A DNA stretch of 64,000 bases from Heterodontus francisci. Its lineage: Eukaryota. Numbering within the stretch: the stretch's first letter is position 1; the number at the start of each line of letters is the position of its first letter. This document shows, piece after piece, positions 1,536-59,464 of this stretch. The notes under the pieces were generated by a model, which saw only the letters and a program-made list of their open reading frames with translations, did no database searches and was not told the DNA's origin. The stretch covers positions 31,747,163 through 31,811,162 of the forward strand of contig NC_090393.1 of the NCBI RefSeq assembly GCF_036365525.1, read 5' to 3'. A program made the position numbers and the translations under genes.

Positions 1536-2039
1536 ACTTAAATATGCTTAGTGCTATTAATTTCTCATTAGGAGAATCATCAAGTAGATGATTTTTCTCA
1601 GTGGATTGTAAAAAGAGAGAGGAATCAAATTCCATCAGAAAGCTCCTCCAATTGCAATGAGCACACTGGCTTGTGTTGGTAACCATGGAGGGTACTCTGG
1701 GGAAATGAATAGCCAGACCAATGTTCCCTTCTCAAAGACGTAATTTCGAGGCTAGAAGTCGTCAGGTATAAAATTCAGAATCATAAAATGTCAGTTCAAA
1801 GGGGTTATGAAAAACATTTCCAAATTTTGTCCAATTCATACTTTTTTCTACCTTGGCAGTTTTAACGATTAAGATTTTCAAACATTTGTTCCAAAATATA
1901 ATTCATAAAACCTCAGCAGTCCCCTGGACAGATACTAAAATCAAACACCGCCCCATCACCCTCTCCCCATCGTTATGCTGACATCGAACACTGTAAAAAG
2001 TCGCTGAGGATTTGACAGCAAGAATGAACGGTGAGGCCA

Positions 2040-2866
2040 GGAAGATCTGACAAAATTCACACGGATTGCGGTTGGAAAGCTTTTATATGTTTAGTTTAGA
2101 GATACAGCACTGAAACAGGCCCTTCGGCCCACCGAGTCTGTGCCGACCATCAACCACCCATTTATACTAATCCTACACTAATTCCATATTCCTACCACAT
2201 CCCCACATGTGTACAAGTCCGTGCGCAGTTCTGACGGCTTCTGTAAGAAACCAAAAAAGAAACCCAGGCCTAACACAGACCTCCTCGCTTTGCTGCTGTC
2301 CCCGGTAATAACACAATAAATAACACGCCTCACTTTCACACATGTGCTATAATGCAAATTTCAACATTGAAACCACCAGCACCATCAATAAACGCCCACT
2401 CGCATTTTCTCCACCTACGTCTCGTATTCCAGTAATAAAAGGATGTTTGAAGATGCAATTGGATTTTTACAAATTGCTTAAAAATTGCATCAAGCCTTTC
2501 CTTCATACTCTGTTCCCAAATATTATTTGCGCACAGTTACCGGCGACAGTAATTAGTGACCCGAATGATGGGGGGGGGGGGCACAGCTACATCGTTATAG
2601 GAACGACCGGCCACCACAACAACACGACGACTTTTAAAATACCAACGAGACAAATACCTTCATGACAATTCCTCTGACTCCGCGCCCGAAACTACAACAA
2701 CATGTCCGGCCTGCTAGTGCCAAAAGGCGAGAAGCTCCAATCTGGAATCCAGCAAACGGACACTCGCTCTCGCGCTGCCGCGGCTGCGCAGGACCAAGCG
2801 CCAAGAACCGCTCTGATTGACATTTGCATCAACCAATCGGCAGCGAAATGCAAAGCCGCACAGGAA
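2040..2866 (-). other. Diverged inverted duplicate of the promoter/exon 1/intron start at 59271-59960 (ATGAAG at 2663-2658, donor GT 2657-2656)
   Basis: Co-linear reverse-complement match along the whole block, e.g. GCATCAAGCCTTTCCTTCATACTCTGTTCCCAAATATTAT; carries an extra SINE at 2091-2206. Confidence 0.9.
2091..2206 (-). mobile_element. 5'-truncated V-SINE (HE1-like) with ATGT target duplication
   Basis: 3' part of the SINE at 12435; ATGT at 2087-2090 and 2207-2210; empty site in the paralogous block near 59910. Confidence 0.85.
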
Positions 2867-2961: not shown

Positions 2962-3607
2962 CTTTTTGGGCCTCCTTATCTCGAGAGACAATGGATACGC
3001 GCCTGGAGGTGGTCAGTGGTTTGTGAAGCAGCGCCTGGAGTGGCTATAAAGGCCAATTCTGGAGTGACAGGCTCTTCCACAGGTGCTGCAGAGAAATTTG
3101 TTTGTTGGGGCTGTTGCACAGTTGGCTCTCCCCTTGCGCCTCTGTCTTTTTTCCTGCCAACTACTAAGTCTCTTCGACTCGCCACAATTTAGCCCTGTCT
3201 TTATGGCTGCCCGCCAGCTCTGGCGAATGCTGGCAACTGACTCCCACGACTTGTGATCAATGTCACACGATTTCATGTCGCGTTTGCAGACGTCTTTATA
3301 ACGGAGACATGGACGGCCGGTAGGTCTGATACCAGTGGCGAGCTCGCTGTACAATGTGTCTTTGGGGATCCTGCCATCTTCCATGCGGCTCACATGGCCA
3401 AGCCATCTCAAGCGCCGCTGACTCAGTAGTGTGTATAAGCTGGGGATGTTGGCCGCTTCAAGGACTTCTGTGTTGGAGATATAGTCCTGCCACCTGATGC
3501 CAAGTATTCTCCGAAGGCAGCGAAGATGGAATGAATTGAGACGTCGCTCTTGGCTGGCATACGTTGTCCAGGCCTCGCTGCCGTAGAGCAAGGTACTGAG
3601 GACACAG
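2962..3607 (-). mobile_element. RTE-clade LINE, 5'-truncated
   Basis: LLYGSEAW...RRLRWLGHVSRM...CSTCGRACHSRIGLYSH; TSD ACTTTGAGAGT at 2951-2961 and 3611-3621. Confidence 0.92.
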
Positions 3608-13737: not shown

Positions 13738-13943
13738 CTATGAAAGAAGAGGCACTCCATAGGTTGGCAGCTCCTGCTGTAGCTGGCGGAACATCATGGC
13801 ACATTTATTTCTTTCTTTTGTCTTCCCTAGAGTGTTGAACAGCCTTGTCTGTAAGTAAAGGACTTCTCTGATCCGCTCACTGCAGTCTGCCTTTTCAAAA
13901 TATATCTTGGCTTCATTCAGATTTTCAATTGCTGAATCTAAAG
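13738..13943 (-). CDS. ANAPC5: ANAPC5 exon 17 coding part (206 nt including stop)
   Basis: ALDSAIENLNEAKIYFEKADCSERIREVLYLQTRLFNTLGKTKERNKCAMMFRQLQQELPTYGVPLLS-TAG. Confidence 0.95.
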
Positions 13944-16900
13944 CTTAAGAAACAAAGTTAGATTTTAGGAAACGTAACAAGCAACATCACTGGAAAGTCC
14001 AACAGCCATTATCAGCATAGTATTTATAATGAGCACATTTTAGTAATCCTCACAAAGATTAATTTAAGTATTAGAAATGGTGAAATATTGGTTTTAACAT
14101 TTTGATTAACTTCCTGGGATTTAAAGGATCTTTAAAGATATAATATAAAGCCTCCAACAATCTTTTAAATTCAAAGATTATTGTAAACTCAATTTGCCAC
14201 CTTCTTTAATATTACTAGATTCCTGAGCAGTAGAGTATTAAATTTACATAGCCAGAGGTCTCACAAAGAAAGAGGGAAAAAAAGGAACCTTTTCTTGACC
14301 TCTGGACATCTCAAAGCACTTTACAGCCAATGAAATACTTTAAAAAGAATAGTCACTGTTGTAATGCAAGGTAAAATGGCAGCCAATCGGCACAAAGCGA
14401 GATTCCGTACCAATGAAATGAATTATCAGATTATCTGTTTTATTGATGTTGGTTGGGATTCAGAGAACTCCCCTGCTTTTCAAGTAATGTCACAGCATCT
14501 TTTACATCCACCTGAGAGGACAGATGGGGCCTCAGTTTCAAGTATCATCTGACAGGGTTGATGAGGGGAATGCTGTTGACATGGTGCACATGGACTTTCA
14601 AAAGGCATTTGATACAGTGCTAACAGACTTGTGAGAAAATTTGTAGCTCATGGAATAAAAGGGATGGTAGCAATATGGGTACCAAATTGGCTGAGTGACA
14701 GGAAAGAGAGTAGTGGTTAATTGATGTTTTTCAGGCTGGAGGAAGGTATGTAGTGGAGCTCCCTGGGATCAGTGTTGGGACCCTTGCTTTTCCTGATATA
14801 CATTAATGACCTAGACCTTGGTATACAGGACACAATTTCAAAGTTTGCAGATGATATGAAACTTGGAAGCATTGTGAACTGTGAGGAGGATAGTGTAGAA
14901 CTTCAAAAGGACATGGACAAGTTGGTGGGATGTGCAGACAGGTAGCAGATGAAGTTCAATGCAGAGAAATGTGAAGTGATTCATTCTGATAGGAAGAACA
15001 TGGAGAGACAATATAGAATAAAGGGTATAATTCTAAAGGGGGTGCAAGAGCAGAGGGACATATACACCTACATGCATAAGTCATTGAAGGTGGCATGACA
15101 GGTTGAGAGAGTGGTTGATAAAGCATACAGTATCCTGGGCTTTATTAATAGGGTCAGAGAGCACAAGAGCAAGGAAGTTATGTTGAACTTGTATAAGACA
15201 CTAGTTCGGCCTCAGCTGGAGTAGTGTGTTCAATTCTGGGCGCTGCACTTGAGGAAAGAAGTGAGGGCATTGATAAGAGTACAGAAAAGATTCAATAGAA
15301 TGGTTCCAGGGATGAGGAACCTCAGTTATGATGATATATTGGAGAAGTTAGGACTGTTTTCCTTGGAGAAGAGAAGGCTGAGAGGTGATTCGATAGAGGT
15401 ATTCAAAATCAGGAGGGGTCTGGACAGAGTAGATAGAGAGAAACTGTTCCCACTCGTGAAAGGATAGAGAACGAGAGGGCGCAGATTTAAAGTATTTGGT
15501 AAGAGAAGCAAAAGTGGCATGAGGAAAAACTTTTTCATGCAGCGAGTGGTTAAGGTCTGAAATGCGCTGCCTGAGAATGTAGTGGAGGCAGGTTCAATTG
15601 AAGCAATCAAAAGAGAATTAGACAGTTATATGAAAAGGAAGAATGTGCAGAATGGGGAGAAGGTAGGGGAACGGAACTGAGGGAGTTGTTCTTTCAGAGA
15701 GCCGGTGCAGCCACAATGGGCCGAATGGCCTCTTTTGCGCTGTAACAATTCTGTGATTCTGTGAAATATGACATCTCAGTATTGCAAAGGAGTATCAGCT
15801 GAAATTATGTGGTCATATTTTTGAGTGGGGCTTGAGCCCATAACCTGACATAACGGTGAGAGTTCTATTACTGAGCCAAATCTTACAGAAACTTAGTCTG
15901 TACATGTACTGCACTGAAAATTCCAATTCGCAGAGATATTTCATGAGTTTAAAACCCATGGGAAAGGAGAACTTTCAAGTTCTACCATAAAATGCATTTT
16001 CTGAAAGAGTTCACCGATAAATACAAAAAGCAGTAGAAACTTTCTGATGTTTGAGTCATATTAATGCCAGAGAGAAAAGCAATTTAAAGGAAAAGGTCAA
16101 AAATATAACACAGAATTTGAAACATCAGCTAGGAAGGTGAGAATGTGGAACCCCCTACCACAGGGAGTAATTGAGGCAAAGAATATAGATGCCTATAAAG
16201 GGAACCTAGATAAGCATATGGAGAAGAGGAGAATAGAGGGTTTTGCTAATGGAACTAGATAAGGAAAAACGGGACGACGCTCAAGTGGAACATCAATGTC
16301 AGCATACACTGATTGAACTGAATGGCCCATTTCTGTACTGTATATTCTATGTAATTCTATGTTAAGCCTTCAGAGACTAGTTGTTCGTAGACATCCAAAA
16401 GGAATATTATAGCCAAGGACTTTTGAGGAAGGCTGGGAAGCGAGAGAAGACTTTGACTTATTACAGAGATAATTATATAAGCAAAGAGCAATATGTTATG
16501 GTCAAGGGGGGGCAGTGCAATTGTGTATTTAGAGACATATAAAATGTGAAGAGTTTAAATCTGTAAATTGAGATAAGCGATCAGACCTCTTCACCCAAAA
16601 ACTGTTTTCCAGATGTCAAATGTTTTACTTTTGTGGTTAATCTTTGTGTTTAGACACCAAACCAGTCCCTTCACTGACATTAGACAGCTACAAGTATTGC
16701 ACAGAACAGAAGATTTATTACATATTTAAAGTTCTACACCTGAAACAATTAATTGTCAAATGGATTGAGGAAATTTAGTTCTTTAAAAAAAAAGCTTAAA
16801 AACAAATATTGAGCTTCCAAATGGAACAGTGAATTTAAAACAAAATACTCAGCAGGTCAGGCAGTATCTGTGGAGCGAAAAACAGAGTTCACATTTCAGA

Positions 16901-19900
16901 TCTGTGAGACCTTTTGGAACAGTGAATTTATTTGGTAGCCCACACAGATGAGAAGATCCCAGATTTGATCTCTGGTCCTTGAATTAGCTGATCTCCACTA
17001 TAAGGCAGCAAAATGGATTAGAAGAAGTGAGGGTGGGGGGTAAAAAAAAAAAGAGTGGAAAAGCTGTAGCTTCTGTTCCTCATTAATATTGAGAAACCCT
17101 TGCTAAAAGTATGCAAGCGAGGATAAGATCACACCCTCCCATCATGGCCAAATAGCCTTTTAACACTCAATCAAGGTTCACACATGAATAGAATCATAGA
17201 ATGGTTACAGCATGGGAGGAGGCTATTTGGCCAGTCATGTTCATGCTGGCTCTCTGCAAGAACAACTCTGTTAGTCCCACTCACCTGCCTTTTCCCTGTA
17301 GCCCTACAAGTATTTTCTCTTCAGGTGCTTATCGAATTTCCTTTTGCAAGTCATGATTAAATCTGCCTCCATCACACTCTCAGGCAGTGCATTCCAGATC
17401 CTAACCACTCAATGCATAAAAAAAATTTTTCATCATGTCACCTATGATTCTTTTGCCAATCACTTTAAATCGGTGTCCTCTGGTTCTTGACCGTTTCGCA
17501 GATGGGTACAGTTTATCTACTCTGTCCAGACCCGTCATGATTTTGAACACCTCTATCAAATCTCCTCTCAACCTTCTCTTCTATAAAAAGAGAAACAACC
17601 CTATCTTCTCCAATCTTCTCTGCGTAACTGAAGTCCCTCATCCCTGGAATCATTCTCATCAATCCTTTCTGCACCCTCTCTCAATCCTTGGCATCATTCC
17701 TAAAGCGTGGTGCCCAGAATTAAACACAATACACCAGCTGAAGCCTAACCAGCGTTTTACAAAGGTTCATCATAAACTTCTTTGCTTTTAACCTGCCCTG
17801 CCACCTTCAACAAATATGTGCACATATACCCCCAGGTCTCTCTGTTCCTGCAACTCCTTTAGAATTGTGCCCTTTATTTTATTTTGCCTCTCTTCATTCT
17901 TCCTACCAAGTGCAATTTTCACACTTCTCTGGATCAAATTTCATCTGCCACGTAGCTGCCAATTTCACCAGCCTGTCTAATGTCGTCTAGAAGACTATCA
18001 TTATGACCATGACTGAAATACCGGGAGGGGGTTCAAGACTACGGGAAGTTAGAGAAGACCAATATTACAGCGGATAATGGAAATACAATCTTTACGAGAA
18101 ACACATTTGACTCGCAGTACACTGGAATGTGTGATAAAACAGCCTACTAGTCATGTTCTAGGTAAGGTGCTGTATGATTTAAAATATGCTGTGCCAACTA
18201 ATATTAAAGTGGGTTGTCTATTCACTGAATGTAAAAAAAAAACACTTATCGGAGAAATCTTCCATTTTTAAAAAGTGATAACCTGAGGAACTTGAAATTT
18301 CCTCTAATTACAGATCTTAATAACAAGTATATACAGTTGGACCTAATGGATTCTTAGCAAGATCTGAGAAAACTCACTCAGACAGTTTGTAAGCGTTACT
18401 GCAATCCATGCAGAAGTATACAGTGCAAATAAAAAAATTAAAAAAATTACCCTCAGCTTTTTCTTGAGTAGGGCAAGAGGCTGCAGAAGCAACTTGACAT
18501 TTTGCCAACAGCAGCATAGCACGCCCTCGGTCCAAGACTGTTCCATTAGCCAGAATGGATTCTATAGCCATATGCAGGACATTCAAAGCTTGTTCTGGAA
18601 TTCCAAGCAGCAGCTAGTAAAAAGATATAATTTGGTTGAGTTTTCTAAAGTGGAAGAAAAATGTTACAGCAAGAACTATTAGAAGTATAGCATCTGGCAT
18701 GCACTTCCTGTTTGTTGCACTCATTTCCTGTGTCGCAATATATACACTTACCTTTCAGTTCTCCTGATGCTCGGTGAAACTGCAGTTAAATTTAAGTTCT
18801 GTCTTCATTTTTACTTCCTAAGACAGTCAAGTAAGTTTATTTTATTATTCTATTTTGTTTCATTTTCCTCCTTCATCAAGCTTATTTTATATGTAAGTTA
18901 TTTAACATTTATTTTCTGCCATAGACCTCTTTTAGCCTACCATCCCAGAATCAGCTTTAAAAATATATATTTTAATCCCAAGCTAACTTTCCTACCAACT
19001 ATCTAAAAAGCAAGGGACAGATTTTCAGTTTCTGAATGCCTTACAAATTTGCTTCTCAAGTCTGCTGCTTCCTATTTAGCAGAACTGCCCTGAACATACT
19101 TTCTATCCTGGTTCTTCTCATATGTCTTCACCAGGACATCTATTTATTGGCTACAATCTACCCCATCCTTACCCTCTTCTTCTTGTACTGCAACTGTAAA
19201 ACAGTCCTATTTCTCTGGTTCTGCTTGGTTTTGTTGGGAGGGGGAATATTAAAATGAATCCCTATTACTTCCCCTTTGGACTTCTCACTCAGCTCCTGTA
19301 TACACTTGATCTTGACTCCCTGTGTAGAAACATAGGGCATAGTAACAGGAGTAGGCCATTCAGCCCATCGAGCCTGCTCCGCCATTCAATACGAACATGA
19401 CTGATCATCCACTTCAATGCCTTTTTCCCCATGCTATCCTCATATCCCCTTTATGTCATTTGTATTTAGAAATCTGTCAATCTCTGCTTTAGACATACTT
19501 CCACAGCCCTCTGGGGTAGAGAATTCCAAAGATTCACAACCCTCTGAGTAAAGAAATTTCTCCTCATCTCTGTCCTTAGTGGCTTCCCCCTTATTTGGAA
19601 ATTGTGTCCCCTGTTTCCAGACTCCCCAACCAGGGGAAGCATCTTACCTGCATCTACCCTGTCTATCACTTTAGGTATTTTGTAGGTTTCAATCAGATCA
19701 TCTCATTCTTCAAAACTCTAGAGAATACAGACTCAGTTTCCCCAATCTCTCTTCATAGGACAGTCCCACCATCCTGGGAAAAAGTCTGATGAACCTCCAT
19801 TGCGCTCCCTCTATGGCAATAATATCCTTCCTAAGGTAAGGGGCCCAAAACTGCACACAGTACTCCAGGTGCGGTCTAACCAAGGTTCTATACAATTGAA

Positions 19901-22900
19901 GCAAGACTACACTACTCCCGTACTTAAATCCTCTTGTGATAAAGGCCAACATACCATTAGCCTTCTTAATTGCATGCTGCACCTGCATGTTAGCTTTCAG
20001 TGACTTATTGACAAGGACACCCAGGTCCTTTTGTACATCTACACTTTCTAATCTCTTACCAATTAAGAAATACTCCGCACATCTATTCCTCCTACCAAAG
20101 TGGACAACCTCACATTTTTCCACATTCTGCCACATTCTTGCCCACTCACTAAGTCTTTCCAAATCTCCTTGAAGCCGCTTTGCATCTTCCTCACCGCACA
20201 CATTCCCACCTAGTTTTATATCATCTGCAAACTTGGAAACACTACATTTGGTCCCCACATCCAAATCATTGATATATATTGTGAACAGCTGGGGCCCCAA
20301 GTACTGATCCCTGCAGTACCCCCACTAGTCACAGCCTGCCAATGTGAGAATGACCTGTTTATTCCTACTCTCTGCTTTCTGCCTGTTAACCAATCCTTAA
20401 TCCATGCCATTATATTACCTCCTATCCCATGTACTTTAATTTTGCTAACCAACCTCGTGTGGGGGACTTCATCAAAAGCCTTCTGAAAATCCAAGTATAC
20501 CACGTCCACTGACTCCCCTTTATCAATTCTGTTAGTAACATCCTCAAAAAACTCCAACAGGTTCATCAAACACGATTTCCTATTCATAAATCCATGTTGA
20601 TTATGCCCAGATCATTATTATCCAAGTGTCCATTTATCACATCCTTTAGAATAGATTCTAGCATTTTCCCAACGACTGATGTAAGGCTAACAGGTCTGTA
20701 ATTCCCTGTTTTCTCTCTCCCTCCCTTCTTAAATAGTGTACAGTGCCATGGGAATATGAGCTAATATATATTGTTTCCATCTCAACAAACAGGAGTTGAT
20801 CAGAAATTGCTGCCATATTAGTTGCTGGGTCATGTTTAAATTTAAAGCAAAACCAAAATTCAAGTCCATTTAGGAAGATGCAAATCAGTAAAAGGTTGCT
20901 TTCAGGTGCTCCCATTTAGAAAAAAAAAGTGTGTCTTGGAAGAGAAATCATGAAAAAAATACATTAAACCATAAAAATGTGGATAAAACAATGTTAAAGG
21001 AAACAGTCAACTGCTTCTGTAAAAGAAATATTCATTTACATGCACATTAAACATCAAAATATAGATCACTTGCTTCAAACTTTAAAACAATTCCTACTAA
21101 GCAATTAAGTCAGCAATTTTAAATAGAAAAATTGAGTTATGTTACAGCCATCAGTATTAAAAACTAAAAATATTAACAAACTGTCTTCAAAACATTGGTC
21201 AGTAACAAATGTTGAAATGCAGTGCTAATACTGTATAAAATTCTACTTAATAAAATCACGTCTTTTATCGAAGACCAGGGTCTACGTTACAAAGTCTGTT
21301 TTCACTAAAATGGCCAGTCACATCATTGATATCCAGAAAAAATATATTTTTCTCCATTCCTTTCCTTTTTGAATAGGCGTCAGTAAATGATTGGTGGTAT
21401 ATTTTGGATGTTAAAAGAAGCACCTCAAATGTTGTAATGCATAAAGGGTCATTGACCCAAAACATGAACTTTTGTTTATTCCTCCACAGATGCTGCCAGA
21501 CCTGCTGAGTATTTCCAGCATTTTCAGTTTTTATTTCAGATTTCCAGCAACTGTAGCATTTTGCTTTTGTATCAGTCAGTGTTGGTGTTTATTTTTCAGA
21601 CGAGTGTTGGTTTTAAGAGAAAGAATGACTTGCATTTATACAGTGCCTTTCACGACCACCGGACATCTCAAAGCACTTTAAAGCCAATTAAGTACTTTTT
21701 GAAGCATAGTCATTGTTGTAATGCAGGAAACATGGCAGCCAGATTATGCACAGCAAACTCCCACAAACAGCAATGTGATATAATGAGCAGATAATCTGTT
21801 TCTGTGATGTTAATCGAGGGATAAATATTGGCCAGGACACTAGGGATATCGCCTCTGCACTTTTTCAAAATAATGCTATGGGATCTTTTGCATCCACCCA
21901 AGCAAGCAGATAGGGCCTCGGTTTAATGTCTCATCCGAAAGACGCCACCTCCAACAGTGCAGCGTTTCCTCAGTACTGCAGTCAGCCTTGATTTTTGTGC
22001 TCAAGCCCTGGAGTGGGACTTGAACCTGGAACCTTGTGACTCAGAGGAGAGAGTGCTAACAACTGAGCCACAGCTGACACTAATCCCATGTGCCTGCAGT
22101 ATCCCCATATCCCTTTATTTTTCTTTCGTTCCCTTTCCTTCAACCATCTTTCTAACCGAAACTTAAATGATTACATTATGTCCCTGCTTCAAATCATTTC
22201 ACAACCTCAAGTCTCTGTATTTAAAAAAAAAAGTTTCATCTCACTTTTCTAGGTCTTTTGCATTTAATCTTATATTTATGTCCTTTTGTCCTAGGTCCTC
22301 TGACCAACTGGAAGCAGTCTGTTTTGATCTATTCTGCTTTATCTCTTCATAATTTTAAACACCACCATCAAATCACCCCATAATTTCCTCTGTTCCAACA
22401 TAAATAGTACAAATTTTCCAAGTCTTTGTGTTTGTATCTTCTTCTACCAGGCAGCATCCTGGTGAATCAGTACCGTAAGTGCCCTGTTGCCGCAGCATCC
22501 TTCCTGCAGTGTGGAACACTGAACAACTGTGGTCTCACTAAGATTTTCCATACAGATTCACCATTACAGCTTAACTTTTATCATCTACATCAAATCAATA
22601 GTTAATTCATGGCCTTATCTATTTGAGGTGCAAAAGCAAAATACTACAGATGCTGGAAATCAGAAACAAAAACAGAAAATGCTGGAAATACTAAAGGTCA
22701 GGCAGCATCTGTGGAGAGAAAAACAGAGTTAACATTTCAGGGCTGTGTGAGCTTTCACCAGAACTGGACATCAACCTGAAACATTAACTCTGTTTCTCCC
22801 TCCACAGATGCTGCGAGACCTGCCAAGTATTTTCAGCACTTTCTGTTTTAATATCAACACAGACTGTTTGGACTGAAGACCCTGTTTATGTGTTGTAATT

Positions 22901-25900
22901 TGTATGTTGATGCACTCCTCTAGCATTGTGGTATTTAAATGGCATCTCTTCCTTTCCAAATTTAGTCTTGTTCCCACTAGACATTTTAATCTCTTCTCCC
23001 TGTAACTGATATTTAAATGTGGAAGCTTGGACTGAAATTCAGTAAGAAAATTTTTGAAATCACAGCACTGTATGAGCGAAGCAGAGCAACAGCGCACAGG
23101 AACTGCTGGTATAGTGGTAGGTTCCTATGACTATGGTGCTATTGGCTCTGCTGTAATTGGCAAAATTGCTTCAATGGGAGGGAATCGGGATGGAAGAAAT
23201 GGTCCTTATAGAGGTCTTCCCTACTTTTAGACCCAAGCAGGGACATACATTTCTTAACTCATACTGGAGTATATACAGTAAGCTTTGCAATTGGTTACAT
23301 TAACATTCGTAGCATAGCTCACCTGTGAAAACGCCAAATGTAAGATGGCTTCCGAGGTTAGATACTCCAAGTGATATTCACGGCTTAGAGCCAATGCTTT
23401 TAGGAGTAAAGGAACTGCCACTGCATGACATGAGGAACGCCAGAAAAGCTCAGCCTCCAAAATAAGAATTCTAAAAATAAATATTTAATAACACATTAGC
23501 AAAGTTTTATTTTTGGATTTTCTTTCCAGATGAAAATGATAATTTTAAGTTTTCCTTCTTTTTCAAATAGATCTCAGCTGAGTGACAGGCAACAAGCTTT
23601 CAGGCTTCTGAAAATGATGCGAGAAGTTGGTCGCTAGGATGTGCTTTTACATCTAAACTGCAGCCTACTTATTTCACCTCAATCTCTATACAAAGCACTT
23701 GACCTGCAGTACATTTGATTACCACCACATTGTGTCATCTTTATCTTAAATGTTGCCCTTCTTTGACTTGTGCTATGGGATTGCCTTTCAGGTTACTTTA
23801 TGTCTTATTTCACTTCTGCTTTTGTCAATATCCCTCAGCACTAGTCAACTCAAAAGGCAAGCAAGCAATTTGCCATAGCACTCTAATTTGATTAATGAGA
23901 GAATCTGGCCTTAGCATCTCCCAAAATCGTGATGTAGTACATACTACTGCGACAGAGCTAGAAAACTGGAGAAATCAGTTATAAAAACAGTAAGTGCTGA
24001 AAATACTCAGCAGATCTGACAGCATCAATGCAGAGAGAGAACAAAGTTAATGTTAGAGGTCTATGACCTTTCATCAGCCACATGGTTTATCCATCCCTTA
24101 TGACAAAGGCTTACCAAGTGATTCTGATTCTATATATTATCCTCAGAGTAACTGATCGTAACTATGAATATGGAAAAGTTGTGCTGGAGTATATTTAAGA
24201 TTAATTTTGTGGGAATGAAAAGTCACACTACCTGAGTACCTGGAGGTCCTGGGCTGTCTGTGAGACCAACACACAATAAGTTAAAATAGCTTTCTGCTGA
24301 GCACGGGTTTAAGGCAAACGTATCTCCACAGATCAGAAGGCTGACCTGTGTGTCTACCAGGTTGGGAATCAGAACACTTGTGTTTACGGTAATAAATCAT
24401 CAGAAGAGTTTGAGAGGACAATATAACCACTATAATAAAATTATTAGAAGAGGTTGAGAAGATTTAAGTGCCTGTTTGTTGGGTTCATGTTATTCTGATG
24501 TCACTTGATGTCATCTTTGATGCATGCTGCCACAAAATCATAGTACATGAAATGTAGAAGTCAAAAGGTAGAATTAGTATAAGAACTGTGAGTGGAGACT
24601 TTGTATGTTGTACTCATACTAGAATTATGAAGTGTGAATGTTGGATTGTGAGGTATGATACTAGATTGTGAGGCATGATATCTCAATAAAGACCTGAGCA
24701 CACATACTGGATTGTGAGGTATGATGTCTTAATAAAGACCTGATTCTGCATTGCTACAACTGAACGTGTGTATGTTCTGGTGTTTAAAGTAAGTAAATGG
24801 ATTAGAAGAAGAATCCAAAAGATTTCAGGAAATTCTTCTTGTCACAAAGACTGATCAACACATGGAATGGACTTCAAGGTAGAGTAGTCAAGGCAAAAAA
24901 TGCTGGAATCATTTAGGAAACAAATCAGATCCTACAACGGGGAACATTCCGAATGCAAGAACTAAGATAGGCCAAATGGCCTTCTTCATCCATAATTATC
25001 TGTAATCAGCGACATCTATAGCAAAGTCCTGATCAATTTTAGCCAGACTAGCAATTGCCAGGGCTCAAATGTTTAATGCAGTGAAAAACCAAACCATACA
25101 AATGCCCCATCACACACCTTCCCTATTGTTCTCTTCCCCCCCCCACCCCTGCTTCACTTGCTTAAAACCTATTACATTTCTAACTTTTGCCAGTTCTGAT
25201 GAAAGGTCCCAGACCTGAAACGTTAACGCTGCTTCTCTCCCCACAGATGCTGCCTGACCCGCTGCATATTTCCAGCACCTTCTGTTTTTTATTTCAGTAT
25301 TCAGCTGCTTTTCATGTTTGGTGCTAGTTTGTGTGCCTGTAACCCTTCGTAAATTGTGCATTAACAACTACTATCTTCCATATCAGATTTATATTTGTTT
25401 TATTAGTCAGTTTGATGTGTATCAGAATTTTGTGTTCAACTTAGATTTAGATTTAGAGATACAGCACTGAAACAGGCCCTTCGGCCCACCGAGTCTGTGC
25501 CGACCATCAACCACCCATTTATACTAATCCTACAGTAATCCTGCAGAGTCTCATCGACAGGTTTGCGTCTGCCTGCAATGAATTTGGCCTAACCATCAGC
25601 CTCAAGAAAACGAACATCATGGGGCAGGATGTCAGAAATGCTCCATCCATCAATATTGGCGACCACGCTCTGGAAGTGGTTCAAGAGTTCACCTACCTAG
25701 GCTCAACTATCACCAGTAACCTGTCTCTAGATGCAGAAATCAACAAGCGCATGGGTAAGGCTTCCACTGCTATGTCCAGACTGGCCAAGAGAGTGTGGGA
25801 AAATGGCGCACTGACACGGAACACAAAAGTCCGAGTGTATCAGGCCTGTGTCCTCAGTACCTTGCTCTACGGCAGCGAGGCCTGGACAACGTATGCCAGC

Positions 25901-28900
25901 CAAGAGCGACGTCTCAATTCATTCCATCTTCGCTGCCTTCGGAGAATAATTGGCATCAGGTGGCAGGACTATATCTCCAACACAGAAGTCCTTGAAGCGG
26001 CCAACACCCCCAGCTTATACACACTACTGAGTCAGCGGCGCTTGAGATGGCTTGGCCATGTGAGCCGCATGGAAGATGGCAGGATCCCCAAAGACACATT
26101 GTACAGCGAGCTCGCCACTGGTATCAGACCCACCGGCCGTCCATGTCTCCGTTATAAAGACGTCTGCAAACGCGACATGAAATCGTGTGACATTGATCAC
26201 AAGTCGTGGGAGTCAGTTGCCAGCATTCGCCAGAGCTGGCGGGCAGCCATAAAGACAGGGCTAAATTGTGGCGAGTCGAAGAGACTTAGTAGTTGGCAGG
26301 CAAAAAGACAGAGGCGCAAGGGGAGAGCCAACTGTGCAACAGCCCCAACAAACAAATTTCTCTGCAGCACCTGTGGAAGAGCCTGTCACTCCAGAATTGG
26401 CCTTTATAGCCACTCCAGGCGCTGCTTCACAAACCACTGACCACCTCCAGGCGCGTATCCATTGTCTCTCGAGATAAGGAGGCCCAAAAGAAAGAACAGT
26501 AATCCCATATTCCTACCACATCCCCACCTATCCCTATACTTCCCTATCAATAACCTATACTAGGGACAATTTATAATGGCCAATTTACCCATCAACTTGT
26601 AGTTGAAAATCTCATTTTCAGACTCCTTTAGATTGTTTACTTTGTATCCAAGTGTTACCATTTGTAATTGTAATACTGCTTCCAGCTTCTCACTTTTTTT
26701 TTTAAAGTACAAAATTAACCTTAAAGACAAGCTGTTCATTACAAATTGTGTACCTAATGATAATTTGAAAAGCTTTAGTTACAGTCATGAATTTTCACAA
26801 TAGGTACACAAAATTCTTCAGACTTAGCAAAAGAGAATGAATTATTTTATCACAATGAAATGTTACTCAAGCCTGCACTGTGGTGACACCTAAAGTTTAT
26901 CACTTAGAATCATTCACACATGCATTCATTCCCGACTTACTTTATCAACATTTCTGTAGACTTTTTTTTCTGACAATGGATCAACAACTTTTGTAGAAGT
27001 CTGTAGGATTCTGTGATCTGATTCTGTGCTTTCAACACAAGTGCTTTCCTTTAGGGACCATGAAAGAGAAACAAGTGAATGCTATAATATGGAGCCCTAT
27101 GACTCCTGATGTATCGATTAGAATACAGCGCATCTTAGATCTTAGTTAACACAACAAATTTCGTATGGTGTCGGTGAGTTGGAGAATACGGTATTTCATA
27201 ATTGTGTTATAATGCCATTTAACACACAATGGATTATCGGAGCCACTAATTTAGGGTGAATGATTGATTTTGTAATAATATTTGATGCATTCTGGGATAT
27301 TTAACCAGTATTTTAGCGATTAAATTCCACAATTCTAAATCAAAGGACACAATCACTGACCAATGCAAGCAATTGGACCGCTGGGTGGAGCACTACCTCG
27401 AACTGTACTCCAGGGAAAATGTTGTCACTGAGATCGCGCTCAATGCAGCCCAGTCTCTGACAGTCATGGACGAGCTGGACGTACAGCCAACAAAATCGGA
27501 ACTCAGTGATGCCATTGATTCTCTAGCCAACGGAAAAGCCCCTGGAAAGGACGGCATTACCCCTGAAATAATCAAGAGTGCCAAGCCTGTTATTCTTTCA
27601 GCACTCCACGAACTGCTTTACCTGTGCTGGGACAAGGGAGCAGTACCACAGGACATGCGTGATGCCAAGATCATCACCCTCTATAAGAACAAGAGTGACC
27701 ACGGTGACTGCAGCAACTACTGTGGAATCTCCCTGCTCAGCATAGTGGGGAAAGTCTTCGCTTGAGACGCTTTAAACAGGCTCCAGAAGCTGGCTGAGTG
27801 TGTCTACCGAGGCACAGTGTGGCTTTCGAGCAGAGAGATCGACCATTGACATGCTGCTTTCCCTTCGCCAGCTACAGGAGAAATGCCGCGAACAACAGAT
27901 GCCCCTCTACATTGCTTTCATTGATCTCACCAAAGCCTTTGACCTCGTCAACAGACGTGATCTCTTCAGATTACTAGAAAAGATCGGATGTCCACCAAAC
28001 GTATTAAGTATCATCACCTCATTCCATGACAATATGAAAGGCACAATTCAGCATAGCGGCGCCTCATCAGACCCCTTTCCCATCCTGAGTGGCGTGAAAC
28101 AGGGCTGTGTTCTTGCACCTACACTGTTTGGGATCTTCTTCTCCCTGCTGCTCTCACATGCGTTTAAGTCTTCAGAAGAAGGAATTTTCCTCCACACAAG
28201 ATCAGGTGGCAGGTTGTTCAACCTGGCTCGTCCAAAAGCAAATACCAAAGTACGGAAAATCCTCTTCAGGGAACTCCTCTTTGCTGACGATGCTGCTTTA
28301 ACATCTCAAACTGAAGAGCGTCTGCAGAGATTCATCGACAGGATTGCGGCTGCCTGCAACAAATTTGGCCTAACCATCAGCCTCAAGAAAACGAACATCA
28401 TGGGACAGGACGTCAGAAATGCTCCATCCATCAATATCGGCGACCATGCTCTGGAAGTGGTTCAAGAGTTCACCTACCTAGGCTCAACTATCACCAGTAA
28501 CCTGTCTCTCGATGCAGAAATCAACAAGCGCATGGGAAAGGCTTCCACTACTATGTCCATACTGGTCAAGAGTGAGAGAAAATGGCACACTGACACGGAA
28601 CACAAAAGTCCGAGTGTATCAAGCCTGTGTCCTCAGTACCTTGCTCTACAGCAGCGAGGCCTGGACAACGTATGTCAGCCACGAGCGATGTCTCAATTCA
28701 TTCCATCTTCGCTGCCTCCGGAGAATCCTTGGCATCAGGTGGCAGGACCATATCTCCAACACAGAAGTCCTCGAGGCGGCCAACATCCCCAGCATATACA
28801 CCCTACTGAGCCAGCGGCGCTTGAGATGGCTTGGCCATGTGAGCCGCATTGAAGATGGCAGGATCCCCAAGGACACATTGTACAGCGAGCTAGTCACTGG

Positions 28901-31900
28901 TATCAGACCCATCGGCCGTCCATGTCCCCGCTATAAAGACGTCTGCAAACGCGACATGAAGTTCTGTGACATCACAAGTCGTGGGAGTCAGTTGCCAGTG
29001 ATAGCCAGAGCTGACGGGCAGCCATAAAGGCGGGGCTAAAGTGTGGCGTGTCGGAGACTTAGCAGTTGCCAGGAAAAATGACAGAAGCGCAAGGGTAGAG
29101 CCAACTGTGTAACAGCCCCGACAACCAATTTTATCTGCAGCACCTGGGGAAGAGTCTGTCACTCTAGAATTGGCCTATATAGCCACTCCAGGCGCTGCTT
29201 CACAAACCACTGACCACCTCTAGGCGCTTACCCATTGTCTCGAGACAAGGAGGCCAAAGAAGGAAAAGAAGAAGGAATTTAAGGTGAATGATTGCATAAA
29301 TATTATTACAAAATCATTCTGGGATATTTAACCAGTGTTTTAGAAATTAAATTCCACAATTTCATCCAGTTTTTAATGAAAACTGTATACCAGTGGCCTC
29401 CATTAAATGTCACTTTATTTATATACTCAATTCCACCTTTTTTCTTAAAGCCCAGGATTCACAGCAAGATGGCAAGCATCAGGGTGGGCTGGAACAGATG
29501 AGCATCGGCTAGGAGTAATGTGTGGCAGTTTGGTGTTTCTAATAAACTTAAGCATACGATCCCGAACTTGCAGAATGAAAGTTGAGAGAGACATCTCTGA
29601 CAGGAGTTGGGCAATATTATGCGTACGTTCCAATATTTGTTTTACAGATTAGTTTGTAAATTATACTTTTTAAATCTGCATATAGCTTTCAGGGCAAGAG
29701 GAAAAATGGCAGATGATATTTTTTTCAAAAATTCTCCAGCAAATGGTTTGTTTGTTCACCTTCTTTCGAAGGAATTCCTATTAACATTAATATATTTTCA
29801 TTTCAGCAAATAAGGTAGAAGAAATTTAGTTGAGGTAGGACAAACATTTTAACCAGGACAGGCATTTGCATGAGTTATAATGTACCAGCAAAACATGATA
29901 GTCAACAGGAAATTCACACTTCAGTACATTTCCTGTGGGCAGCTTGCCAGTCAGAGGAATTAAAATAATAACCAATATGTTTAAATTCTAAGTATCTATT
30001 TATAAAAAGAGTAATAGTTTTTGAATTCAAGCAAAATAAAGTGAAAGCGGTGATAGACAAAGAAAAAGGCACTATTTGGCTCATTATCCATCACTTATGC
30101 TCTCAATTTAAAAAAGCAGTTGATAACAAAATGTGAAACTTTACCTGAAAAACTTGTTCTACAGATTATTTGCTTTTCTGTTTCAAAATGATTTGGAATC
30201 AAAGTTAGAAAACATATTACATTTATAATCACACAGAAATATAACGGATACCTACTAGGAAATTATGAACATGGCACATACCCAGGCTGGGATTGGAGCA
30301 AATTAGGATGGTTCTAAAGGACAAGCTTGATGAGCAGAAATGCATCAAAGCAGGGGGAGGGTGAAGGGGACAGAGCTGTGGCTTCCAGGCCAGGTTGGTC
30401 TGGGTAGAACTCAGATAGGTGGTGCAGTATGGTGGTGGTGACAGCAGTTGCATGGACAGGCCTGTTTTTAAAATAAAACAGATGGTCTGCATGACATTAC
30501 TCAGGGATGTACCAGGTGTACAGAAGTAGCTGGACCACAAGTATTGACATTGGCATTCTGGTGAAACAATAAGCCTCAGGCACCTCACGCAGGTTAAGCT
30601 TCAAACGATGAAATTTAAGTATAGGAACAAGAGAAGTCTGAAGGCAAGTCAAAAAAATGTAATTCCATTTTCATGTTATAAATTATATTTTTTTTAACCT
30701 GTCAAGTTGGAAGATTGAAGGAGAAACTGTTAAGGGGGAAACTTTTCAAGAAGTATTTTGAACTATTTAACTTTTGTTTCCTTTTATTGGTAGACATTGC
30801 ACACGGACTTTCTCTTGTGCAAAATATTTAGTGCTGAGCTATAATTCTAAGAAAGTTGCAAAGCTTTTGAATTGTAATATTCTATGAATATAAAATTTGA
30901 GCCAAAAACGTAGTAAGATGACTAAAATGGACAGTGTGATGGAGAGATTTCTAAATTCACTTGTAACAGCCCTTCAAAACACTCCCACAGGGGATGCTGA
31001 GACCAAGTGGGCCCACATCAGAGACGCCATCTATGAGTCAGCTTTGACCACCTACGGCAAACGTGCGAAGAGAAATGCAGACTGGTTTCAATCTCATAAT
31101 GAAGAGCTGGAACCTGTCATAGCCGCTAAGAGCACTGCACTGTTGAACTACAAGAAATCCCCCAGCGAGTTAACATCCGTAGCACTTAAAGCAGCCAGAA
31201 GCACTGCACAAAGAACAGCCAGGCGCTGCGCAAACGACTGCTGGCAACACCTATGCAGTCATATTCAGCTAGCCTCAGACACCGGAAACATCAGAGGAAA
31301 CTATGATGGCATTAAGAGCGCTTTTGGGCCAACCATCAAGAAGATTGCCCCCCTCAAATCTAAATCAGGGGACATAATCACTGTCCAACGCAAACAAATG
31401 GACCTCTGGGTTGAGCACTACCTAGAACTGTACTCCAGGGAGAATGTCATCACTGAGACTGCCTTCAATGCAGCCCAGCCTCTACCAGTCATGGATGAGC
31501 TGGACATACAGTCAACAAAATCGGAACTCAGTGATGCCATTGATTTCTCTAGCCAGCAGAAAAGCCCCTGGGAAGGACAGCATTACCCCTGAAATAATCA
31601 AGAGTGCCTAGCCTGCTATACTCTCAGCACTACATGAACTGCTATGCCTGTGCTGGGACGAGGGAGCAGTACCTCAGGACATGCGTGATGCCAATATCAT
31701 CACCCTCTATAAAAACAAAGGTGACTGCAACAACTACCGTGGAAACTCCCTGCTCAGCATAGTGGGGAAAGTCTTTGCTCGAGTCGCTCTAAACAGGCTC
31801 CAGAAGCTGGCCGTGCGCGTCTACCCTGAGGCACAGTGTGGCTTTCGTGCAGAAAGATCGACCGTTGACATGCTGTTCTCCCTTCGTCAAATACAGGAGA

Positions 31901-34900
31901 AATGCCGCAAACAACAAATGCCCCTCCACATTGCTTTCATTGATCTCACCAAAGCCTTTGACCTCGTCAGCAGACGTGGTCTCTTCAGACTACCAGAAAA
32001 GATTGGATGTCCACCAAAGCTACTAAGTATCATCACCTCATTCCATGACAATATGAAAGGCACAATTCAACATGGAGGCACCTCATCAGACCCCTTTCCT
32101 ATCCTGAGTGGCATGAAACAGGGCTGTGTTCTCGCACCCACACTTTTTGGGATTTTCTTCTCCCTGCTGCTTTCACATGCGTTCAAATCTTCTGAAGAAG
32201 GAATTTTCCTCCACACAAGATCAGGGGGCAGGTTGTTCAACCCTGCCCGTCTAAGAGCGAAGTCCAAAGTATGGAAAGTCCTCATCAGGGAACTCCTCTT
32301 TGCTGACGATGCTGCTTTAACATCTCACACTGAAGAGTGCCTACAGAGTCTCATCGACAGGTTTGCGGCTGCCTGCAATGAATTTGGCCTAACCATCAGC
32401 CTCAAGAAAACGAACATCATGGGGCAGGGCGTGTGGGAAAATGGCGCACTGACACGGAACACAAAAGTCCGAGTGTATCAAGCCTGTGTCCTCAGTACCT
32501 TGCTCTACGGCAGCGAGGCCTGGACAACGTATGTCAGCCAAGAGCGATGTTTCAATTCATTCCATCTTCGCTGCCTCCGGAGAATACTTGGCATCAGGTG
32601 GCAGGACCGTATCTCCAACACAGAAGTCCTCGAGGCGGCCAACATCCCCAGCTTGTTCACACTACTGAGTCAGCGGCGCTTGAGATGGCTTGGCCATGTG
32701 AGCCGCATGGAAGATGGCAGGATCCCCAAAGACACATTGTACAGCGAGCTCGCCACTGGTATCAGACCCACCGGCCGTCCATGTCTCCACTTTAAAGACG
32801 TCTGCAAACACGACATGATGTCCTGTGACATGATCACAAGTCGTGGGAGTCAGTTGCCAGCGTTCACCAGAGCTGGCGGGCAGCCATAAAGGCGGGGCTA
32901 AAGTGTGGCGAGTCGAAGAGACTTAGCAGTTGGCAGGAAAAAAGACAAAAGCGCAAGGGGAGAGCCAACTGTGTAACAGCCCCTACAAACAAATTTTTCT
33001 GCAACACCTGTGGAAGAGCCTGTCACTCTAAATTGGCCTTTATAGCCACTCCAGGCGCTGCTCCACAAACCACTGACCACCTCCAGGCGCTTACCCATTG
33101 TCTCTCGAGATAAGGAGGCCAAAGATGGAGAGATAGATACATAAATGGTGTGACATTACACCCGTGAATCAAAAAAGAAACTGCAGGACCAGTTCACTCG
33201 AACTGGGTGCATGTAGTCTATTAGCAGTCAGAGATACTAAAACTCAAGAGACTAACCTACTGACATTAAGGTTATGGAGCAGATGTTTTTCCAGTGGTAC
33301 CCCATCAGCACAACCCCCTCTTCAACACGCTGACCAAAAAAAAAAAAAGCTTACAAAATCCCTGTAAATACATTTTCAAAAACTAGCCATAAGTTTTTCT
33401 ATTTTTTTTTATTAAGGAAAGCAATTTTATTTAATAGTACAAAAAAAATGACCAGGTTTGTTTTTGTAATTCAAGAAAACTAATCAAATCAGCAAAACTC
33501 AGATTCGATTAAGTTCATCAGATCATTCAATTTACACAAATTCCATTCGAAATTGAGCTTCTTTAATTCATTTTTCCAAAAGCATCTAGTTATCCAATCT
33601 TTTTATTGTTGAAAGTAGAATATTTTGACATGAAACTAGTGACAGCTCTGTTATGGGAACAAGAGTAGGCTATTTAGCCACTCAAGTCTGTTGCGCCATT
33701 CAATGCGATCATAGCTGATCTGTGATCTAACATATAGACCCACCTTTGCCCCATATCTCTTAATACCTTTGGTGAACAAAAAACAATCAATCCCAGATTT
33801 AAAATTAACAATTGATCTAGCATCAACTGCTGTCTGCCGAGGATGTTTGGAACTCTCTGCCACTCTTTGTATGTAAAAAACATTTTTACTGAGAACTATT
33901 CCTTGCACTTACCTATACAGTCCTTCTGGTCCATTAAGTGCTGCTATTCCAGGAACAAGGGAGTCAGCTGTATGATACTTCCCATCATTCATTGCTCGAT
34001 TAAACTGTATATTTTGGTCAAATAGCATCCAGAGCTTTTAGGTACAGAAAAAATGATTATAAGCACTGAACTATGCAGAGCTGTAGATGAACAACTGCAC
34101 AACACTATTCTATGCATTTTTAGGTCCAAGATACCAATTAAAATCTTGAGGCGATTTATATGAATTTATAGTACATTGCAACACTCAGTAACCTACAATG
34201 AGATTTCCTGCAGTGTGTATTACAATTCAGGTTCTCTCCAAATACTAGTGTTCACGACCAAAAGGTAGTTTCTATAATAGGACTGATATCTCCACTGAAC
34301 GTAAATGTTTAACATGAATGAGATAAATGTGCTGAGGACCAAGAATTACCCCATTAACACAGCACAGTCACTGAAAACTATATGGACTGCCACCATTTTC
34401 TCAGCATTTCACAGGCATATTTTCAAGCTAGATCATTGCACAGAGACAGAAAAACACGGCATAAAAGTCTAGTGGTAAAATATTTGTCAAACTCAATGCA
34501 AAATCTGTGCCAAAATAATAAGTCTTGAATTTTCAAGAGTTCCTTTCAGTAAGTTGCAAACAGAATCTGAAGAATCATCACTCAGCAAAGAATTCCACAA
34601 ACTTTCTCTAGGTCAAATCCATTGAAATAGACAATGCGTAACAAAGAACTAAACTAGGGCTGCAACTGTTTGCTCTTTGAAACGCAAGCAGTCACACTGA
34701 AAAGAAACAAATAAATAGGCCAGGGCTTTTGTTCCTAATCATGAACCCATGCTAGAAGTGCATTCATGTGGATTCTAGGCATGGACAGGATCCAGCTCAG
34801 CTGTTATAACTCTTCCTTCAGCCTCCCTCTTTCCTTGAAAGGAGTTAAGGAACTCAGCAATGTAGCAGATCACAGTCACAGACTTACAACCCATCAAACT

Positions 34901-37900
34901 GGTGAAGTCAGTTGGTTCTCCAGTTCACTGTCTACTTCCACTGAATCCAATAGGAGGTCTGTAGAGATGGTTGAAACAGAAGCAGGAGCTTTTTATGGTC
35001 ACTGGAAACCCGGATGATTAACTTTCATACAGGTCATCTGTCTCGAGATTTTACAGAAACTGTAATTTAAATGCCAATCCAGCTGTCAGCAGCTTAAGGG
35101 CAACACTGTCTATACTTATAGCTCCCCTCATTCAAAGTAAATACACAAGTATCAATGTGTACAGTTGCTGTTGAGGCATTAACCCTTTCTTCCCAATAGC
35201 CAAACAGCAAAAAAATAAAGTAAGCACTTTTAGACAAGGAATTCTTTATGGACTCAGGGCAGTAAAAACATTGTACACCTGTTCTGAAGAATTGTTACAC
35301 CTTCTGTTAAATGACTGTAATCATTTACAAAATTAAACACCGTCACAAAAAGACGACATCACAATTATCTTCCGTATCAAACAATAAATGTTGGCACAAT
35401 TGTCAGCGTACCTTTGCATGCTGGCTGTGGGGAGGAAACCGATCTTTTAAATGCTTCAGGATTTCAGAAGCAGCCGAGTAGTGACCCTACAAGTCCAAAA
35501 ATACATGTCATTTATGTTGACAGTCACAATCAAGCATATATTTAATATTCAATTGTGTTAGCATTTCTGCTGCTTGGGTCCCTTTTAGGTACGTGAATCA
35601 AATGAAAAAAAAAAATTACATTTCTGTTGTTTTATATTAAATGGAGTTCGATACCCAGTTACTGATATTTTGTGAAGAAAATCATTTCAGGTGCTCTGCT
35701 TCAACTCAAGGTGGAGACTAATCATTATGATTGCCTTTTTAAAAACAAAGGTCATATGATGAATAGCCTTTTGATTAGTACACTTGAGTTGGTTTGGAAG
35801 GGATAACTAATCTGAGAAGTGTGAAAGAGCCAAATTAACAGCATGGAGACAAACTCGAAAGTGCCCAAAATTATGGCCATTTCCATTAATGCTAATTCAG
35901 CTCCCCCTCATGGTCAGGTTTAGTAACTGCTCTTAGCCAAGTAACCTACTGGTTAGCGAAGTCCAAAGTACGGAAAGTCCTCATCAGGGAACTCCTCTTT
36001 GCTGACGATGCTGCTTTAACATCTCACACTGAAGAGTGCCTGCAGAGTCTCATCGACAGATTTGCGGCTGCCTGCAATGAATTTGGCCTAACCATCAGCC
36101 TCAAGAAAACAAACATCATGGGGCAGGACGTCAGAAATGCTCCATCCATCAATATTGGCGACCACGCTCTGGAAGTGGTTCAAGAGTTCACCTACCTAGA
36201 CTCAACTATCACCAGTAACCTGTCTCTAGATGCAGAAATCAACAAGTGCATGGGAAAGGCTTCCACTGCTATGTCCAGACTGGTCAAGAGAGTGTGGGAA
36301 AATGGCGCACTGACATGGAACACAAAAGTCCGAGTGTATCAAGCCTGTGTCCTCAGTACCTTGCTCTATGGCAGCGAGGCCTGGACAACGTATGTCAGCC
36401 AAGAGCGACGTCTCAATTCTTTCCATCTTCGCTGCCTCTGGAAAATACTTGGCATCAGGTGGCAGGACCGTATCTCCAACACAGAAGTCCTCGAGGCGGC
36501 CAACATCCCCAGCATATACACCCTAAGCCACCGGTGCTTGAGATGGCTTGGCCATGTGAGCCGCATGGAAGATGGCAGGATCCCCAAAGACACATTGTAC
36601 AGCGAGCTCACCACTGGTATCAGACCCATTGGCAGTCCATGTCTCCGCTTTAAAGACGTCTGCAAACGCGACATGAAATCCTGTGACATTGGTCACAAGT
36701 CGTGGGAGTCAGTTGCCAGCGTTCGCCAGAGCTGGCGGACAGCCATAAAGGCGGGGCTAAAGTGTGGTAAGTCGAAGAGACTTAGCAGTTGGCAGGAAAA
36801 AAGACAGAGGCGCAAGGGGAGAGCCAATTGTGTAACAGCCCCGACAATCAAATTTTTCTGCAGCACCTGTGGAAGAGCCTGTCACTCTAGAATTGGCCTA
36901 TATAGCCACTCCAGGCGCTGCTCCACACACTACTGACCATCTCCAGGCACTTACCCATTGTCTCTTGAGATAAGGAGGCCAAAGAAGAGGCCATTATAGA
37001 CCCAGAAAAACACATACCCTGTGCAGCTTGACCCAATTCCACATTAAGGTCTTGAAACAGACATTAGGCCCTTGATTTTAGCAACTGACAGACTTCTGGG
37101 AACGGATGGTAAATTGGGAGATTGTACCCAGAAATTAGCCCTCCACAAAATATTTTACGCCCAATAGATAGGTGCAATATCCTCCCTCTCCGGGGAGCTT
37201 ACTCTTTTAAGAAAACTCAGTGACCACAAAATTACTACTTTAACCATGTGACATTATACTGTAATTAGGAAATTGGAAAAATATGATCACAACACTTTTA
37301 GGAAAAATTCTTCAAACAATATTCTTGTGAACTATCTAGCTGAAATTGAGCAAGACAGGCAAGAAAGTGAGAGATTTGACTGCTGGTTTGTGCTTAATAA
37401 ACTGATCTCAGCTTAGACGCAGTAGGGGCACTTTGATTGGCCTCAGTGTACCTTGGGCCAGGGGGGAAAAAGCCCAGATACCTGGTCCTAATCACTATAG
37501 TGAGCTCTGCTGAAGTATGCATGTGAAGATAGGTTTGAGCACAACCATAATGTCCCTTGTGGTAAGAATGGCCACTTGGGCAAGGTAGAGCTGTAGCTCT
37601 ACTCATAGAGCTGTAGCTCATCAAGGTGGCAATGCCTGCAGGAGAAAAGGTTAGACAAAACAAAAGATGGAAAAAAAAAACACAAATCCAACTCACCTGT
37701 TCTGCATGAAGTTCTGCCAGGTGACACAGTACTACAGCCATTGCCTCAGTGTTATTTTGATGGATATCCATGTTTACAGACTCCAGACTGTGCATGTACA
37801 AAAGAAGCTGTGTTTGCTGTAGAGCCATTGTGCTACAATGATAAAAAAGTGAAACACTAAACATTAGCGCTGTGAATTATTTATTAGAAATCATGACAAA

Positions 37901-51460: not shown

Positions 51461-51599
51461 GATAATGAGCAGTCAAGTGGTGAAATTAAATACCAGAGCT
51501 AAAATCTCAAGTGAAGAAAAGCAACTAAACCCAACTGAACTTCTCCAATGCAGACAAAAACACTGTGAATATCCTAGTGACCACAATCACACTAGGCCT

Positions 51600-51880
51600 G
51601 ATGGAAACGGCGTTGCACATACAAGGGTTTCGATTTGCTAAAGACGTTTCCTTTTAGCAGAGTCATTCCTACAACGAAGCATCAACTTACGACAGATACA
51701 AGATACATTTTCCTTAGTTTTAATCTGTAATTTGCAGTATTCAGAAATTCGGACAAATCTGCAGAGCGACGAATCAACCACCTCCAACCGGCGGCAGGCT
51801 CACCAATCAATGTACGATCGAAGCATCCGCTCGATGCGCTCTAGTCACAGTTTGTTGGGTCTGAAAGCATCGAAATCAGG
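51600..51880 (-). promoter_or_regulatory. Probable ANAPC5 promoter / non-coding first exon
   Basis: Locally CpG-rich in a CpG-poor background, with a CCAAT near 51803. A candidate donor GTAAGT at 51690 and a polypyrimidine TTTTAG acceptor at 51499 lie just upstream of the ATG. Confidence 0.5.
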
Positions 51881-51924
51881 AGTCAGACTGGGCAAGGAAG
51901 AGTGAGATAGATTACTAACCCATT

Positions 51925-59458: not shown

Positions 59459-59464
59459 ATGAAG
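59459..59464 (+). CDS. RNF34: First coding exon (Met-Lys) of probable RING finger protein 34; exon 2 not found in window
   Basis: GTCATGAAG|GTATTT. In human, RNF34 is the head-to-head neighbour of ANAPC5 and begins MK-AGATSMW, with MK on exon 1 as recalled. The call rests on synteny plus only two codons. Confidence 0.55.

Follow-up and report, generated by a model that had tools for sequence, protein, structure and literature searches.

The promoter of NBPF1 was reportedly recruited from EVI5, and alien promoter capture is said to have taken place in Drosophila. In these cases, as at the shark locus considered here, the promoter would come from an unrelated gene; unlike in them, a two-codon coding exon moves along with the shark promoter and could supply a start codon. 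The promoters of the primate LRRC37 family were duplicated from BPTF and DND1 (PMC3371713, in excerpt), and they resemble the shark block in that the duplicated promoter of an unrelated gene gives rise to an alternative promoter with its first exon. The LRRC37 recipient is a young, expanding family residing in segmental duplications (PMC3371713, in excerpt), and most promoter captures described so far involve gene families that are young or expanding, whereas the likely recipient in the shark would be a conserved single-copy kinase upstream of AMPK, lying two genes away and served by a 0.7-kb inverted copy with a putative promoter. A further precedent is provided by inversions 2h and 2q of Drosophila mojavensis, which arose by staggered breaks and carry inverted duplications, so that single-copy DNA is found in inverted duplicate on both sides of a segment, as in the shark (PMC3355041, in excerpt). 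The staggered-break model, as outlined in that source, distributes the original flanks over the two copies; in contrast, the decoding described below would place both the ANAPC5 side and the RNF34 side at the right copy of the shark pair. The kind of event is known and its occurrence at this locus would be new; no paper on this shark locus was present among the matches listed in literature searches.

The locus was analysed as a 64-kb stretch of DNA (the window) containing ANAPC5, whose exons share 646 of 751 8-mers with the Heterodontus francisci protein (next best protein, 505 of 753). The main elements are as follows.

2037..2850, minus strand: left copy of the module, comprising promoter, first exon and 5' part of the intron, likely derived (self-BLAST, alignment)
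13741..51460, minus strand: ANAPC5 coding span, ATG at 51460 (best match, Heterodontus francisci protein)
about 51500..51950, minus strand: CpG-rich region with CCAAT upstream of ANAPC5, observed/expected CpG 0.9 (base composition)
59283..59963, plus strand: right copy of the module, likely the original, belonging to RNF34 (self-BLAST, alignment)

An earlier note had described an inverted, diverged and co-linear pair flanking ANAPC5, and self-BLAST of the window bears this out. Positions 2207-2850 align in inverse orientation with 59913-59283 (84.4% counting gaps) and positions 2037-2093 with 59963-59907 (93%); alignment of the two blocks gives 603 identical letters in 666 gap-free columns (90.5%). 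Both ends are sharp. Homology halts on the intron side at 2037/59963, essentially where it had been claimed to, and on the promoter side at 2850/59283 instead of 2866/59271; beyond these limits, four of four flank comparisons stayed within the shuffle range. The roughly 500 bp of common intron were also correctly described (59465-59963 in the right copy). Since homology ends 500 bp into the intron, promoter and first exon were duplicated without the gene body. Exon (90.2%) and intron (90.7%) have diverged equally (Fisher p = 0.88), and this comparison reveals no sign of exon-specific constraint. The longest identical run, of 44 bases, spans the ATG and the donor, and the 22-mer covering the ATGAAG start/donor, correctly assigned to both copies, has exactly two occurrences in the window when as many as three mismatches are allowed; two matches were obtained in 0 of 100 shuffles. 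A metagenome scan for this 22-mer and an Rfam search each yielded 0 matches. The inverted duplicates thus placed at both ends of the ANAPC5 segment are single-copy each, as counted in the window.

The claim of CCAAT boxes holds in part, as the shared upstream part of each copy retains one perfect CCAAT (2837 and 59296), while the second box is a TCAAT variant. An upstream ORF, MLL*, is kept in both first exons (2703 and 59419), 40 bases ahead of the Met-Lys start. The earlier description of the left copy had overlooked a 120-bp SINE fragment, which entered this copy after the duplication. A LINE fragment outside the block is very young and possibly polymorphic, being 99.4% identical to 25846-26489 and bordered by an 11-bp target-site duplication.

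2089..2206, strand not assigned: SINE fragment, 120 bp, inside the left copy, 98% identical to 52398-52515
2833..2837, minus strand: CCAAT box of the left copy, reported as ATTGG on the transcribed strand
2962..3607, strand not assigned: fragment from the 3' part of a young LINE, with target-site duplication, some 110 bp upstream of the left copy

The CpG density noted for both copies is likewise evident, with observed/expected values of 1.04 in the left and 0.88 in the right block against 0.09-0.65 in the other 1-kb bins of the window. CpG decay relative to other changes gives a ratio of 2.7 for the block pair, and 22 of 23 repeat pairs give a higher one (range 2.0-14.5); these pairs, which are not independent of each other, are what remains of 30 after removal of two near-identical and five saturated pairs. 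Such low decay suggests that both copies stay unmethylated, in agreement with what had been proposed for the left copy from its kept CpGs, though as an indication rather than proof. With regard to ANAPC5, the right copy lies 7.8 kb upstream of the ATG and faces away from it. The head-to-head arrangement anticipated for this pair therefore stands as a divergent orientation, but at 7.8 kb not as a tight shared promoter, and the CpG-rich region at 51500..51950 is likely ANAPC5's own promoter. The left copy lies 10.9 kb beyond the ANAPC5 stop codon, on the ANAPC5 strand.

RNA evidence was drawn from four runs of 19 listed, which were searched with the right copy at 80% likeness. Runs X7 and X14 represent one sample of organism A, and runs X8 and X5 represent organism B. 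The features defined by the resulting contigs are the following.

2651..2657, minus strand: left splice donor, used, GT at 2657-2656; next exon beyond the window (contigs)
2658..2778, minus strand: left first exon, part represented in transcripts, with ATG at 2663-2661 and AAG at 2660-2658 (left-type contigs in four of four runs)
59348..59464, plus strand: right first exon, part represented in transcripts, with ATG at 59459-59461 and the GT of the donor at 59465-59466 (contigs)
60987..61016, plus strand: beginning of a minor exon joined to the right donor, with a stop eight codons on, MKIYFGEFQL* (three of four runs, both organisms)

All four runs, and hence both organisms, contain one contig that carries the letters of the right copy and one that carries those of the left, each reaching the donor and then continuing; the left-letter contigs extend 600-943 letters past it. 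The left-type contig measures 754 nt in X14 and 1045 nt in X5, and the right-major contig of X5 measures 1981 nt. The two copies are therefore both transcribed and spliced at the ATGAAG|GT donor, and they are joined to two different acceptor exons. Positions 2657 and 59465, which had been given as the donors, are the first bases of the introns, and both donors are in use. The left assignment is supported by several details. In X7 and X14, the left type shows five differences where the alignment predicts five, and both listed letters are left letters; the left-type contig of X8 carries the 4-bp insertion of the left copy, and the upstream loose end in X5 is left-copy sequence. The loose end of a further contig maps to 60987 in the window, behind an AG acceptor, and this splice of the right donor establishes that the runs contain spliced RNA. 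Contigs with the minor exon measure 583-901 nt, and the exon may mark an isoform that acts as a decoy or terminates prematurely. A 364-nt contig of X7 spans the right promoter, reaching about 99 nt past 59200, and reflects either an upstream start or a divergent transcript. Contig depth, a rough and poor proxy for expression, gives left/right-major ratios of 0.26, 0.25, 0.53 and 0.26, and 0.04-0.07 of right-major for the cryptic product joined to 60987. Start sites are invisible in contigs, and the left transcripts are also compatible with read-through from ANAPC5.

These data bear on several earlier proposals. A left copy that is a dead scar is excluded by a left donor spliced into its own exon in four of four runs. 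The idea that the segment might flip and swap promoters has found no evidence in these runs, the right-type exon end being joined to the 60987 exon in both organisms; moreover, a short, 90% identical and interrupted repeat is a poor substrate for recombination. That the block is an interspersed repeat, with the left-type contigs derived from a third copy, seems scarcely credible. The copy count covers the 64-kb window and the RNA runs, which leaves this reading some room, but the window holds just two copies, each run yielded three to five contigs of two types only, and the contig difference counts match the left copy. The high-copy repeat that the earlier note had named as the case against its reading was thus not encountered.

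To identify the exons that follow the two donors, the loose ends of the left and right-major contigs are available as one merged 30-letter line. Its agreement of 0.65 for two contigs corresponds to nine of 30 letters in common, the level of unrelated DNA. A co-duplicated gene would share about 27 of 30 letters, so that the next exons are unrelated and the left copy does not head a co-duplicated second RNF34, an option that the earlier note had left standing. A related possibility is that the left copy heads an older RNF34-like paralogue whose 5' block was kept alike by gene conversion. We consider this very improbable. Uniform 90% identity and sharp ends would also suit a conversion tract, and a merged line consisting of the left contig alone would agree with the RNF34 motif introduced below at Thr, Met and Cys positions; however, the next exons agree at the unrelated level, the flanks lack homology, and shared motif positions are expected from any blend containing RNF34.

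The merged line comprises 11 A, 9 C, 6 G and 4 T and is A/C-rich, as alphabetical tie-breaking predicts. The peptide AGATSMWASCC, which the earlier note gives and which we take to be an RNF34 exon-2 motif, fits as one component of this line in the expected frame if alphabetical ties are assumed. Under the same rule, chance fits numbered 18 among 20000 shuffled motifs, 19 among 20000 shuffled versions of the line and 5 among 23269 real 11-mers. The loose end of the right contig in X7 is only 28 letters long, and the last two letters of the line come from the left contig alone. The X7 agreement of 0.67 equals eight of 28 letters in common, which places one mismatch in the last two letters, and the left contig has G where the second cysteine of the motif requires T. 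Consequently, the RNF34-like exon would follow the right copy. Agreement arithmetic excludes a merged line made of the right contig alone, and if the line were the left contig alone, the left contig would still not carry the motif. These considerations suggest that RNF34 follows the right copy, as in the ancestral layout, in a decoding that hangs on one base, the assumed tie rule and a motif taken over from the earlier note. The module likely belongs to the RNF34 5' end, as had been supposed; the decoded fit lends this indirect support, with the same provisos as to motif and tie rule. RNF34 motifs were absent from all six frames of the window, and CAMKK2 proteins gave no real match to it (0 of 3).

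The layout decoded in this way equals the human gene order, which makes an inversion unnecessary. The alternative, a staggered-break inversion of the ANAPC5 segment in which RNF34 truly begins at the left copy, the right copy being a by-product that now faces the former 3' neighbour, appears improbable, if less so than a paralogue. In its favour, inverted single-copy duplicates around a segment are the described signature of such inversions (PMC3355041, in excerpt), the block ends are suitably sharp, and the left/right assignment of RNF34 that speaks against it depends on a single base. It predicts RNF34 on the left, however, and the left contig departs from the motif whichever of the two tie rules compatible with the agreement values is applied. 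Capture of the promoter, the remaining option of the earlier note, is favoured here, given that both donors are spliced to unrelated exons, with CAMKK2 as the suggested partner.

CAMKK2 is proposed on the basis of gene order and of isoforms. The human order is CAMKK2, ANAPC5, RNF34 according to an excerpt of PMC11867633, as the earlier note had stated. The hamster sequence EGW07459.1, named APC5, is a fused APC5-CAMKK2 gene model with 19 codons from the APC5-like part to MSSCV; the fusion is probably a mis-annotation, and it indicates that CAMKK2 lies downstream of ANAPC5 on the same strand. In 12 of 12 cartilaginous fishes compared, the two genes lie on contigs of equal length, which shows a common chromosome but does not imply adjacency. 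If gene order is kept, the left copy faces CAMKK2. Accession-number order was discarded as a proxy for gene order, because the numbers of the two genes neighbour each other in some species but are widely separated in others.

Among 64 cartilaginous-fish CAMKK2 isoforms, 57 begin with MSSCV and seven are short. Two of these (XP_072351234.1 and XP_078083601.1, from Scyliorhinus and Mustelus) place MK directly on the DCVQLNQY kinase exon, at a phase 0 junction like that of the left-copy donor. The exon of RNF34 itself, being on the wrong strand, could not supply MK to CAMKK2, whereas the inverted copy is suitably oriented. The other five short isoforms have different N-termini, which indicates that alternative starts at the kinase exon are common, and the MK of the short isoforms could also come from an intron ending in ATGAAG. 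Several candidates for the left partner were rejected. The DCVQ kinase exon did not fit the merged line; MSSCV at offset 18 was fitted by 3205 of 5000 shuffles and clashes with the RNF34 motif at three codons. The first 31 letters of the left partner leave no room for the MSSCV start if the RNF34 motif is accepted as well, the residual pattern for the left partner exon had no match in the window, and a best-identity scan of the merged line against proteins from the CAMKK2 search gave nothing convincing. The simplest fit would be that the left partner is the untranslated start of the CAMKK2 first coding exon. Gene order and the MK isoforms together make CAMKK2 the likely partner of the left copy.

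The main rival to this assignment holds that the left copy is an active promoter for a non-coding or cryptic-exon transcript and does not serve CAMKK2. It must be taken seriously, as the right copy, too, splices to a cryptic exon, the left partner fits no CAMKK2 coding start tested, and none of three Heterodontus CAMKK2 models starts with MK. It is nevertheless unlikely, since the left product reaches a quarter to half of the right-major depth, well above the cryptic right product, and is present in both organisms, and since MK-CAMKK2 models exist in two other sharks.

On the preferred reading, an inverted 0.7-kb module of the RNF34 5' end was probably copied past ANAPC5 and now acts as promoter and leader exon of CAMKK2. 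The event is best classed as promoter/first-exon capture through a partial duplication, which may be old and common to different shark orders; we infer that RNF34 is on the right, that copying ran from right to left and that CAMKK2 is the partner. The right-copy module, consisting of a CpG-rich promoter, the Met-Lys exon and its donor, would have been copied in inverted orientation beyond ANAPC5, with template switch or break-repair insertion assumed as the route. The left copy is spliced to a downstream exon distinct from that of the right copy, and CAMKK2 is the gene expected to come next on its strand. When spliced to the CAMKK2 first coding exon, the leader is predicted to form 5' UTR; with that exon skipped, translation would begin at the phase-0 Met-Lys and yield a short kinase without the N-terminal regulatory region.

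Such a kinase would be an isoform without the first 173 residues of CaMKK2. In the hamster CAMKK2 sequence, the DCVQ exon begins at residue 157. For rat CaMKK2, deletion of residues 129-151 lowers calcium-independent activity from 60-70% to 10%, and the regulatory sites of the human enzyme include Ser100 and Ser129/133/137 (PMC9570080, in excerpt). If the MK models of the two other sharks use the same exon, the event is ancient and a naturally N-terminally truncated CaMKK2 exists. Both the donor and its copy remain active at a distance of 57 kb, so any divergence between them in tissue use should be directly readable from RNA.

The age of the pair was estimated from a K2P distance of 0.10 +/- 0.013. 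With the epaulette shark mutation rate of 7e-10 per generation, this corresponds to about 73 million generations in each lineage (36-363 million across the interval given in the excerpted source, PMC10587355), or, crudely and with an assumed generation time of 5-10 years, to at least 180 million years. This shows that 90% identity in sharks need not mean a young duplication. The shark orders split in the Early-Middle Jurassic (10.64898/2026.02.13.705779, in excerpt), with which an origin of the pair before that split is compatible. The most far-reaching version of the proposal is correspondingly tentative, and we would not expect it to hold in full. It states that CAMKK2 captured the RNF34 promoter and two-codon exon before the galeomorph orders split and has kept them for more than 150 million years, the exon being a leader for full-length CaMKK2 and, with the first coding exon skipped, supplying the start codon of a 403-aa kinase. 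This kinase would be without the N-terminal stretch to which mammalian CaMKK2 owes its calcium-independent activity, and a single small duplication would have changed the regulation of the enzyme as well as its sites of expression.

The remainder of the window is rich in repeats, its self-repeated share being 37%. At least eight fragments of one LINE family, with 89-99% identity, are found between 6400 and 37000. Just past the ANAPC5 stop codon and near the likely ANAPC5 3' UTR, positions 9276-9804 and 12969-13497 form a 529-bp direct repeat of 99.6% identity, which is either a recent duplication or an assembly artefact.
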